Shown here piece after piece: positions 2,455 through 8,193 of a stretch of DNA of 58,262 nt. This DNA is from Chlamydiia bacterium (lineage in GTDB: Bacteria; Chlamydiota; Chlamydiia; Chlamydiales; JBMOFD01): NCBI GenBank assembly GCA_049314435.1, contig JBMOFD010000001.1, forward strand, positions 1 through 58,262, written 5' to 3'. The notes under the pieces were generated by a model, which saw only the letters and a program-made list of their open reading frames with translations, did not search any database and had not been told where the DNA came from. The position numbers and the translations under genes are program-made. Numbering within the stretch: position 1 is the stretch's first letter; each line of letters begins with the position of its first letter.

Positions 2455-5400
2455 ATGAAGTTGCGACTAGCCAAATTGCCTACGGGAATCGGCTGGGGAG
2501 CCTGGCTCCTCATCGCTCCACTCGCGGGATGGACCTACGCCTCGGCGAGCCCCCCTACTGCGCAAGAGGGCTATACTGTTAACTTCTCCAATGTGAGTGT
2601 CCGCGAGTTCATCCGCTTCATCTCACGGGCTACGGGACAGAACTTCATCTTTGAGGACGAGAACCTCGACTTTCCGATCACCGTCATCTCTGAGGATCCG
2701 ACAGGACCTGAGAATCTGATGACGGCGCTGATCCAGCTCTTGAGAGCTCGCGGATATAGCTTGATTGAGCAGGGAGACAACCTCGTCATCCATAAGAGCA
2801 CCGATGTCTCGCAGGTGGCTAAGGTGATCACCTCGGAGGGAGAACATGTCGACCTCGACTCCAGTGCGATCGTCACACGCGTCTTTCGGCTGGATCGCCT
2901 GACTCCCGATGCAGCGATGCCTATCTTGCAACCGCTGGTTTCAGCATCAGCCAAGCTAGAGGCCTCACCGACCACAAAGCAGCTTATTCTGACCGATGTC
3001 AGCACGAACGTGGCTAAGGTGGCCGAGCTCCTAAAAGCCCTCGATGCTCCCAACCACTACATCGTCATGGGCATCTATGAGACGAAGTCGCCCTATCCAG
3101 CGGCGCTGGTAGACCAAGCAAAATCGATCCTTGCGCCCCTCATCGACAAGACACCCTTCCTGCTAGAGCCAGGAGTGGACGACAAGAAGATCTTCATTGT
3201 CTCCACCCAATACCTAATCGACCAGACGAAGGAAGTGCTTCAAGCGATCGAAGAGGCGGGTGTAGGCGCCCAACAGGGCCAGCCCTTCCTCTATCCCGTG
3301 CACACGCAGAGCGCCCCAACTCTCTTGGCGGCCCTACGCGAAGTCTCTAAGGGTCTAGAAGATAGTGGCGTGACGAAGAGCGATCTCCTTACGGCCATCC
3401 AGCAGGCGAAGGCAATCCCCAGCAACAATAGCCTACTCTTTACGGTCGATCAGAAGACGCAGCAACGGCTCTCCGATCTGTTGAAGGAGCTGGACGGGTC
3501 TCCCACCGATCGATCCACGGCGGCCACCCTGCTTTACCAGCCACAAAGCATGTCCACTGCGGAGATGCAGAAGCTACTGACCTCGCTGGCCGATGCACTC
3601 AGCACCCAGCAGTCCGATCCCGACCTGGAGATGTGCTTACGGGGAGCTCGCGAGATCCCTGGGCAAGGGTTCCTCTTTACCGCCTCTCAAGCCACGCTCA
3701 ACCGACTCCAGGAGCTCCTGAAGTCAGCTGATGGCAAGCTGGGCAGCGTGAGTGAAGGTAGCTCTAGCCTCCTCATCTACCACCCCAAGAACCTCTCTGT
3801 CGCACAGCTCCGAGCCCAGCTTGCTGGGTTGGAGTCGATGCTCCGGAAGGAGGGGGACTCTGATGAGGCTTTGTTTCGTACTTTAAATGACGGACAAGGA
3901 CTCCTAGCCAGCAATAGCATCCTCTTTGGGGGGCCCCCTGCTACGCTGAAGAAGCTGCAGGCCTTTTTGAATGAACTAGACGTACCGGCGGCCGTTGGCA
4001 AATCAGCAGGGGTCGGCTCAGGAAGCAGCTCTGGAGGCGGTTCAGGCTATAATCCAGGTACACTGGTGGCCATTCCTCTCCGTGGAGATTCCACCAAGGT
4101 CTTTGAGGAGCTAAAAGCCACGTCGGCTACGTTGGATCCGGGGCTAAGCGAGGCCCTCAGCCGCGCCACCTTGATCCCGCAGTCCAACACTCTTCTCATG
4201 CAGGGGGATGAGGGCACGATCGCCGCCGTTAGGCAGTTACTCATGTCGATGGGTGCGCTGGCGACTCCCGAGGAGGAATCCACGGTGATCGTCTATCGGC
4301 CGATGGCGATTAGCCTGCCAGCTCTTCAAGCTGGCGTGGCCGACTTAGCGATGCAACTCCAACAGACAGCTCACCCCGACACACACCTTCTGGAGGCTCT
4401 CTCCTCCGCGCGCATCTCCACCGCATCGAACAGCCTTGTCTTCACCGCTCCTGCCAACGCCCAGAAACAGTTGGAAGCTCTGCTCAAACAGATCGACCAA
4501 GCAGTAGGGGCACAAGCGTCGAGCCACTATTGGATTGCGTCGATTTCAACACCGGGTGGAGCTGTCGCGGCCCTCGAGAAACTTCGGTCTCTCTCATCGG
4601 AGCTTCAGGCATCCGGGTTGGCCAATCCGAGCCTCCTTGCCGCGATCCAGATGGCCCAGATCATCGATGATGGGCAAAGCATCGCTTTTTCTAGCGATGA
4701 TAAGACGCTGAGTGATCTTCAGGCCTTAATGCAGCAGCTCGACAAAGCCGACGCAGGTGCGATCGCCTTCTATTCTGCCAAGAACATGAGTGCCTCCGCA
4801 CTAAAGACCGACCTCGTGGAGTTCCTCCATGCCATGGGTCTCACAGCAGAGGTTTATCGCCCGCTGCAGAAGGCGGCGGACTCCGCCCTTGTGATGGCCG
4901 ATGGCAAGACCCTCTCGATCACTGGGGAAAAGGAACCGGTTCAGCAGATTGAGAATCTGCTCAATCGGCTCGATCAACCCCAGACTCAGGCAGGGAGTGT
5001 CTACCTCTATCACATTCCGGCGAACACGACGGAGCAGGCAACCAGCGACCGAATCGTTCAATTTACGCAGCAGCTCAAGCAGGCTGGTGGGGATCGCAAG
5101 CTCATTGCAGCCCTGCAAAGCGGGCACTATATGCCCGATAGCAATGCGATCGCCTTCAAAGGAGACAGTGCGACCCTGGACCAGCTCCCAGCGCTTCTAG
5201 CCGAGCTCCACCCAGCGGTCGCTATACCAGGGAGTGTATGGCTCTATGTGCTGCCACCCACAAGCAACCCGACTGAAGTGCTCACCTCGGTCGATCAGTT
5301 TGCCCGTGGGTTAAGGGCACGCGGAGGCAATCATAGTCTCATCGCAGCCTTGGAGAGCCGTAACTACCTGACCCAGAGCAACTCGATTGCCTTCAATGGA

Positions 5401-8193: not shown

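Follow-up and report, generated by a model that had tools for sequence, protein, structure and literature searches.

A predicted chlamydial type III secretion secretin with a tandem array of 16 N3-like modules

We analyzed a stretch of 58,262 nucleotides from a Chlamydiia bacterium (GenBank assembly GCA_049314435.1, contig JBMOFD010000001.1, positions 1 to 58,262), which is called the window throughout the text. Here, we found that the gene located at 2455..8193 on the forward (+) strand encodes a secretin of 1,912 amino acids (aa), in which 16 consecutive N3-like modules (R01 to R16; 3271..7203, +) are arranged between the N-terminal domains and the outer-membrane core. The array was delimited by a hidden Markov model (HMM) derived from the protein itself, by alignment of the units, by Pfam and by structure prediction with AlphaFold2 (AF2). 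The open reading frame (ORF), its translation, Pfam matches and orthology lead us to annotate the gene as the positional ortholog of the one for CdsC/SctC, and the sequence comparisons described below identify its product as the predicted outer-membrane secretin of the chlamydial type III secretion system (T3SS) injectisome. In our preferred interpretation, to which we assign a probability of about 0.6 (T3SS identity included), the array would form a long periplasmic conduit in this injectisome.

Domain architecture of the secretin

The gene occupies a single long ORF of the window (2383..8193, +). Its likely start is the ATG at 2455, with the motif GAGGAGG 9 nt upstream, and the frame stays open without interruption across 5.7 kb. 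Tandem Repeats Finder (TRF) did not detect a DNA-level repeat across the array and reported only a weak 12-nt repeat at 4016-4046. The original prediction, which had been made from the letters of the DNA, held that the divergence between the units argues against an assembly artefact, and the values of about 22% aa identity and the lack of a DNA-level repeat in TRF bear this out. Since the units are diverged and no DNA-level repeat is present, there is nothing that an assembly program could collapse or expand, and mis-assembly of the array appears very unlikely.

For module counting an HMM was seeded on the two most similar units only and was then iterated. It recovered 13 further units in the first pass and converged at 16 units, which cover aa 279-1574 with a spacing of about 79-90 aa. 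When fragments were compared with the whole protein by phmmer, a self-similar zone was observed at about aa 255-1580, and self-BLASTP of the whole protein returned the identity hit only. The modules are located at aa 273-352 (R01), 353-433 (R02), 434-539 (R03), 540-605 (R04), 606-687 (R05), 688-765 (R06), 766-844 (R07), 845-923 (R08), 924-1001 (R09), 1002-1079 (R10), 1080-1159 (R11), 1160-1238 (R12), 1239-1323 (R13), 1324-1406 (R14), 1407-1497 (R15) and 1498-1583 (R16). They measure 66-106 aa and share a mean pairwise identity of 22%.

Pfam scanning of the whole protein yielded a Secretin_N (PF03958) match in 8 stretches (E=7.4e-55, 183.5 bits). When the units were scanned singly, Secretin_N was the top Pfam match in 10 of the 16 and the second match in R12 (E=0.079). 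Under these conditions R01, R13 and R16 exceeded the Secretin_N gathering score, and no Secretin_N match was obtained for R02, R06, R08, R09 and R11. A profile of all 16 units matched the N2 and N3 domains of E. coli GspD (5wq7) with E=6.7e-13, and the N3 match was full-length. An additional helix, located between alpha1 and beta2, is common to the repeat unit and GspD N3. In the AF2 model of R08-R10, which reached a predicted local distance difference test score (pLDDT) of 86.3 and a predicted template modelling score (pTM) of 0.61, each unit folds as beta-alpha-alpha'-beta-beta-alpha. A Foldseek search with this model retrieved secretins of type II secretion systems (T2SS) as first matches (E 8e-7 to 9e-6), followed by crystal structures of the GspD/XcpQ N-domains and by KH-fold proteins. 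Taken together, the count of 16 in the self-HMM, the profile match to GspD N3 and the AF2 fold confirm the claim of about 16 consecutive units of the secretin N-domain type.

The modules R03 and R04 are separated by a Gly/Ser-rich linker of about 35 aa (3985..4089, +), which was read from the sequence. It is the sole long linker of the array, since the other units are joined by about 8-20 aa, and it may possibly act as a hinge. The most similar pair of modules is R08 and R09 (4987..5457, +). R08 (starting at 4987) and R09 (starting at 5224) share 42% identity in protein and 56% in DNA, and this pair is more similar than any central unit is to its match in P0002 (21 modules) or P0003 (14 modules), two homologs of the secretin. 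Thus, the units near 4992 and 5230 are indeed closer to each other than to the rest (42% vs. a mean of 22%), as had been claimed. The duplication had also been regarded as ongoing. Here, the status of R08/R09 as closest pair speaks for the claim, but the values of 42% (protein) and 56% (DNA) indicate an old and apparently lineage-specific duplication. For R01 and R14-R16, 1:1 orthologs were found in P0002 and P0003 (46-68% identity), whereas the central units had no clear partner in either protein (best matches 43% or less). It follows that the array varies mid-way and that its ends are kept.

The complete layout of the protein comprises a signal peptide, N0, N1, N2, the 16 N3-like modules, the core and a Cys-containing tail, which amounts to N0 plus 18 N-type domains (N1, N2, R01-R16). 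The signal peptide was predicted by eye at aa 1-31 (2455..2547, +) from a basic N-terminus, the hydrophobic stretch GWGAWLLIAPLAGW and the sequence A-S-A before the cut. N0 (aa 42-110; 2578..2784, +) was detected by Pfam (PF21305, type_II_gspD_N0; E=2.3e-12, 47 bits). An N0-type fold is also seen in the AF2 model, and in phmmer aa 38-200 matched the N0-N1 crystal structures of XcpQ/GspD. N1 (aa 139-199; 2869..3051, +) scored 35.6 bits with Secretin_N, which is above the gathering score. N2 (aa 203-268; 3061..3258, +) was missed by Pfam and was recognized by its fold. In the AF2 model of aa 31-352 (pLDDT 76), which contains N0, a disordered linker, N1, the aa 203-268 domain and R01, this domain adopts the beta-alpha-beta-beta-alpha structure of an N-domain. 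The core (aa 1584-1867; 7204..8055, +) was assigned from Pfam, NCBIfam and PDB matches. Pfam Secretin (PF00263) matched aa 1686-1857 (E=1.5e-33, 116 bits vs. a cut-off of 27.5), the TIGR02517 match extends to aa 1867, and the solved cores of GspD, PilQ, InvG and pIV were also matched. R16 adjoins the core, as N3 does in GspD. The C-terminal tail (aa 1868-1912, plus the stop codon; 8056..8193, +) carries two Cys in its sequence, and Cys also occur in the matching tails of P0002 and P0003. The C-terminal core, the matches to N0 (PF21305) and Secretin_N and the signal peptide seen by eye place the protein in the secretin superfamily. These Pfam, self-HMM and AF2 data agree with the predicted architecture of signal peptide, N0, about 16 consecutive N-domain modules and canonical secretin core.

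Orthologs, module number and the ruler-position gene

The original prediction had not specified the secretion system. The assignment to the T3SS is based on the observation that the family mostly resides at the 3' end of the operon cdsD...cdsN-cdsO-cdsP-cdsQ-pknD. The homologs P0002-P0005 share 35-37% identity with the window secretin over 76-87% of the length (P0003, 35% over 79% of the query), and over the C-terminal 415 aa its identity to P0002 and P0003 is 58-61%. On the P0003 contig, CdsD, small T3SS genes, the T3SS ATPase, a YscO-like gene, a 482-aa gene, CdsQ (FliMN_C-type) and PknD, a Ser/Thr kinase with a SpoIIE domain, are located upstream, and the secretin follows directly after PknD. 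Downstream of it a 291-aa gene, YidD, EngA, SNF2 and SMC are found. The upstream gene order of P0123 (21 modules) is the same as that of P0003, with the secretin directly after cdsN-cdsO-cdsP-cdsQ-pknD.

To extend these data, we scanned one genome per GTDB species, which yielded 436 matching stretches, and used the best 80 loci. Nearly all of these 80 were labelled as metagenome-assembled genomes (MAGs) of Chlamydiota, and the others were untitled or carried different labels, such as L016 ('Acidobacteria'), L047 and L075 ('Verrucomicrobia'). ORF clustering gave the recurrent order F18 F13 F11 F9 F7 F3 F4 F6 (secretin) F1 F2 ... F5 F8. Pfam scanning of one representative per family identified F18 as CdsD, F9 as T3SS ATPase, F7 as YscO-like, F4 as CdsQ, F6 as PknD and F2 as YidD. 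Upstream sequence of at least 4 kb was available for 49 Chlamydiota loci, and in 39 of them cdsQ or pknD was located on the same strand, no more than 6 kb upstream. This cdsQ-pknD-secretin order fits what we take to be the CT672-CT674 order of C. trachomatis. The window retains the downstream block, which is also present in the closest relative L083. It consists of the F1 lipoprotein gene (8180..9055, +; family clustering and matches to tetratricopeptide repeats, TPR) and of YidD (20721-21314, -), EngA (21144-22487), SNF2 (22585-26292, -) and SMC (35197-38709, -). JGI labels many of the homologs 'type III secretion protein C', and a T2SS-like secretin that carries a 'large unique N-terminal region' has been described for all chlamydial T3SSs (PMC3459982).

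The number of modules differs widely among these relatives. Among the matches listed in our homolog search there were at least 120 homologs of 1,197-2,272 aa, and the named source organisms were Chlamydiae, Rhabdochlamydiaceae, Simkaniaceae and 'Verrucomicrobia' MAGs. When the repeat HMM of the window secretin was applied to the 120 listed homologs, we counted 7-21 modules (most often 9), and the protein length was strongly correlated with this count (r=0.99). Complete ORFs in the GTDB loci mostly had 5-15 modules. Simkania-type genomes had 14-15 and Parachlamydiales-type genomes about 8-10, and for the Chlamydiota homologs overall the range was 5-24 with 8-9 as commonest values. Searching the repeat profile against 1.84 billion representative proteins returned 1,145 proteins at E<=1e-3, of which 170 reached E<=1e-30. 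Within the chlamydial type, eight 50%-identity clusters (the window's own included) had at least 16 stretches, with a maximum of 24 in P0121 (2,368 aa). Judged from these sequence counts, 16 modules correspond to the upper tail of a family trait and are neither a record nor an isolated oddity. The notion that the array is exceptional to this gene therefore needs revision: the long array is real, but arrays of 5-24 modules are a family trait of environmental Chlamydiota. Similarly, the array is longer than the 2-4 domains to which it had been compared, but the maximum among characterised secretins is the six rings of Thermus PilQ (PMC5745081).

A separate class of giant secretins (P0243-P0265; 2,549-5,532 aa) was also observed. 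In P0250 (5,277 aa, GCA_964461715.1; L084 10001-25834) 57 N-domain modules were counted by iterated HMM, and its gene closes a gspE-F-G-H-J-K-L operon, which encodes a T2SS, on a contig of 70% GC. We found no description of these giant secretins in the searchable literature.

A longer conduit would require a longer needle, and we thus examined the length of the ruler as an independent consequence. The needle length is set by the ruler SctP (PMC4682100). As proxy we used the first gene after cdsO (family F3, between cdsO and cdsQ), the product of which combines a P/E/K-rich part of variable length with a conserved C-terminal domain of about 110 aa. The number of modules correlated with the length of F3 (n=28, Spearman 0.54, p=0.003) with a slope of 18.7 aa per module. 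When independent contrasts were calculated on a neighbour-joining (NJ) tree of CdsO and CdsQ, we obtained r=0.59 (p=0.001) and a slope of 17.9. The lengths of cdsQ and cdsO, which served as controls, showed no significant trend with module number, neither raw nor as contrasts. Of the species with 14 modules, the two in which F3 is longest belong to different clades. At out-of-sample loci, 21 modules were paired with 670 aa (predicted 654), 15 with 614 aa and 14 with 482 aa, and for all 31 loci the Spearman coefficient was 0.65 (p=8e-5). The published Chlamydia pair (CdsC 921 aa, CdsP 283 aa) falls at the low end of the line, where 314 was predicted. For the organism of the window, a CdsP of about 560 ± 60 aa would be expected from this relation. 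For the ruler an extension of about 1.9 Å per residue was reportedly determined by Journet in 2003. At this value the slope of about 19 aa per module translates into about 3.6 nm, which is roughly one ring height. The covariation suggests a stacked or extensible ring conduit that would lengthen the basal body. The original prediction had offered an unusual envelope, a non-stacked arrangement or a different role of the array as options, and with regard to these the covariation leans towards a longer conduit across the periplasm.

The span between cdsO and cdsQ did not correlate with the number of modules, since an additional paralog of about 215 aa is present in this interval in some lineages. 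In some chlamydial lineages (L085 6346-7017; L089 1403-2095; several GTDB loci) cdsP and cdsQ are separated by a gene of about 210-230 aa, which is paralogous to the conserved C-terminal domain of the protein encoded at the cdsP position.

Proposed mechanism and alternative explanations

According to the mechanism we propose, the secretin would be exported by Sec and its C-terminal core would oligomerise in the outer membrane, possibly aided by the lipoprotein encoded at 8180-9055. Every N-type domain of the oligomer would contribute one ring, and 19 rings would give a very long and probably extensible periplasmic tube, which would dock via N0/N1 onto the inner-membrane rings CdsD/CdsJ and through which the needle would run. 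At about 3-4 nm per ring, a height taken from Thermus PilQ (35 nm, 6 rings plus core), the tube would measure about 60-70 nm, which would call for a periplasm that is very wide at this site and for a needle lengthened to match. Over evolutionary time the array would gain and lose central modules by duplication and loss, with R01 and the core-proximal R14-R16 being retained. A stacked tube is the simplest reading because N-type domains stack as rings in every solved secretin. In C. trachomatis, the width of the periplasm increases from 14 to 29 nm at the sites of injectisomes. In this species the basal body contracts from 34 to 29 nm when the host is contacted, which has been attributed to linker-joined periplasmic domains of CdsC and CdsD (PMC4682100). 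A further-reaching interpretation, which we put forward tentatively, is that the periplasmic span of the injectisome is modular and evolvable. It would be set by the copy number of the ring domains (5-24), with a ruler co-evolving at about 19 residues per module; the conduits would reach 60-90 nm, two to three times the longest described, and 57 modules would be reached in the T2SS of another lineage.

Several points weigh against the long T3SS conduit. Ring formation by the extra modules is something we infer, and the structural model represents a monomer with a pTM of 0.61. A periplasm of 60-70 nm far exceeds any reported for chlamydiae. A stack of 57 modules would measure about 200 nm, and stacking therefore cannot apply generally, except with an extraordinary envelope. 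A bend or break in the array is suggested by the 35-aa Gly/Ser linker that follows R03. There is no T3SS gene in the window, and the upstream 2.4 kb carry the AAA_14/DUF4143 gene only, so that a T3SS role is assigned in this genome by orthology and synteny; the secretin is likewise separated from the T3SS genes in some complete chlamydial genomes (L001). The correlation with F3 length is moderate (r-squared about 0.35-0.55) and was obtained with crude ORF starts and a rough NJ tree. F3 itself is a putative cdsP, named by position and architecture. Its C-terminal domain gave no convincing FliK/T3S4 match, the PDB profile search returned only spurious matches to DsbA (E about 0.006), and among 14 F3 members scanned with Pfam there was one Flg_hook match (E=0.052).

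Some of these points would be explained if the modules were real injectisome N-domains that do not form a straight ring stack but act as a flexible tether, as a spring or concertina that follows the membrane spacing between developmental forms, or as a folded scaffold that binds envelope components. We consider this somewhat unlikely. The contraction of about 5 nm that the C. trachomatis basal body undergoes upon contact with the host (PMC4682100) and the linkers of about 8-20 aa between the units, plus the long Gly/Ser linker, are compatible with such flexibility. Despite a pLDDT of 86, the R08-R10 model has a moderate pTM, and for this reason the orientation of the modules is poorly fixed; the 57-module T2SS secretin is hard to square with rigid stacking. 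However, the number of modules covaries with the putative ruler by about one ring height per module, and domains of the N1-N3 type form stacked rings in every solved secretin. The conduit and spring readings overlap, because a spring also predicts some covariation and an extensible stack fits both.

It is far less probable that the protein is a GspD of a T2SS with an expanded vestibule. The GspD model TIGR02517 was the best NCBIfam match (349.9 bits in 5 stretches, compared with 70.2 bits and a cut-off of 238.45 for the YscC-type T3SS model TIGR02516), the best PDB and Foldseek matches were GspD, and giant T2SS secretins with many N-domains exist. However, the TIGR02517 score narrowly misses the cut-off of 351.35 and is raised artificially by multiple matches to N-domains, and the low TIGR02516 score agrees with an independent origin of the chlamydial secretin (PMC3459982). 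Likeness to GspD is the published signature of chlamydial T3SS secretins (PMC3459982). Moreover, neither the 58-kb window nor the vicinity of about 85 orthologs contains gspE, gspF or gspG, and the conserved neighbours of the orthologs are T3SS genes; because of this gene context we rejected a T2SS identity. Membership in the PilQ family of type IV pili (T4P) was also rejected, since TIGR02515 scored 133.1 bits vs. a cut-off of 284.35; the likeness to PilQ is functional and concerns the extra rings. Finally, it is hardly conceivable that the long ORF is an assembly artefact or a decaying pseudogene that does not encode a functional protein. The window is a single metagenome-type contig, and its own cluster consists of one sequence on one contig. 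Against this stand the uninterrupted 5.7-kb frame, the divergence of the units in protein and DNA, the confident AF2 models and the relatives with 14-24 modules and conserved terminal modules in independent assemblies.

Neighbouring genes, implications and comparison with known secretins

The lipoprotein gene (8180..9055, +) overlaps the stop codon of the secretin by 14 nt and is translationally coupled to it. The protein has the lipobox LLSGC, a TPR region and a C-terminal hydrophobic hairpin. The F1 family lies directly 3' of the secretin in 70 of 79 loci, and a lipobox-like motif is present in 61 of 72 members. Judged from these features, the F1 lipoprotein is a candidate pilotin or accessory protein. 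For the T3SS of C. trachomatis no pilotin is known (PMC4682100).

Very large ORFs of 361, 1,716, 1,656 and 2,835 aa, for which Pfam gave no matches, are located at 9233-20720 (+) and 26592-35099 (+). They interrupt a block of genes that is continuous in L083, the closest relative. Two of them (10441-15591 and 15750-20720) are Leu-rich tandem paralogs with 32% identity across about 1,600 aa, in which no obvious N-terminal signal peptide was seen by eye. On sequence grounds, these inserted ORFs could encode effectors. Small genes of the defence or toxin-antitoxin type are scattered among housekeeping genes of the window. A gene with a SocA/Panacea antitoxin domain (38867-39355, +) and an AbiEi/AbiEii pair (50604-51690, +) were found, and the AAA_14/DUF4143 ATPase gene (944-2248, +) is located immediately upstream of the secretin. 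The gene at 52546-53373 (-) encodes a CT398-like coiled-coil hairpin plus zinc ribbon, a chlamydial signature family, and this supports the chlamydial taxonomic assignment. The GC content of the window is 54-61% throughout (57%), which is high for Chlamydiota, and that of the L083 locus is 53%. In the C-terminal region of the secretin, identity to the best GTDB species representatives is only 35-41%, and the lineage of this organism seems to have no close representative in GTDB.

Textbook secretins have two to four periplasmic rings, and to our knowledge the adaptation of secretion systems to envelope width is largely unknown beyond Thermus PilQ. It was already known that chlamydial T3SS secretins are T2SS-like and oversized. 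In the searchable literature we found no description of the extra length as a tandem N3-like array in environmental lineages, nor of the copy number range of 5-24 and its covariation with the ruler-position gene. If the array stacks, these secretins would constitute a natural series of injectisomes with about 8 to 27 N-type domains (N0, N1, N2 plus 5-24 modules). Basal-body, needle and ruler lengths could then be compared, and the ruler model and ring assembly would become testable in cultivable species. The array accounts for the 'unique N-terminal region' of chlamydial CdsC, at least in environmental lineages. In addition, routine GspD annotations of such genes are corrected, and the conserved F1 lipoprotein is highlighted as a possible missing pilotin.

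When compared with known systems, the window secretin resembles the giant T2SS secretins in that these proteins also have N-domains of this type arrayed in tandem ahead of the core. In contrast, the giant proteins match the repeat profile weakly, and P0250 is encoded in a T2SS operon. In sequence and structure GspD/PulD (E. coli 5wq7, V. cholerae 5wq8) is closest, with the same N0-N1-N2-N3-core order and the extra N3 helix. However, GspD/PulD has three N-type domains after N0 and the window secretin has 18, and the gsp operons in which the former are encoded have no counterpart at the window gene.

The PilQ of Thermus thermophilus forms six stacked beta-alpha-beta-beta-alpha rings (N0-N5) in a 35-nm complex across a wide periplasm (PMC5745081). 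It shares with the window secretin a higher number of N-domains than usual and is the only characterised precedent for lengthening by added rings. PilQ differs by its 6 rings (vs. 19), by belonging to a T4P system and to another secretin clade, and no copy-number variation within its family has been described.

The C. trachomatis CdsC (SctC, CT674) consists of 921 aa, which is far above the 566-607 aa of MxiD/YscC (PMC4682100). The window secretin is longer (1,912 aa), and its N0 directly follows the signal peptide, and the extra length lies in the internal 16-module array; the 'unique 250-residue domain' of CdsC is set beside this array by its published description only. Like the window protein, CdsC is a T3SS secretin of T2SS-like sequence with extra periplasmic length, and an elongated, length-adaptable basal body has been proposed for its injectisome (PMC4682100, PMC3459982).

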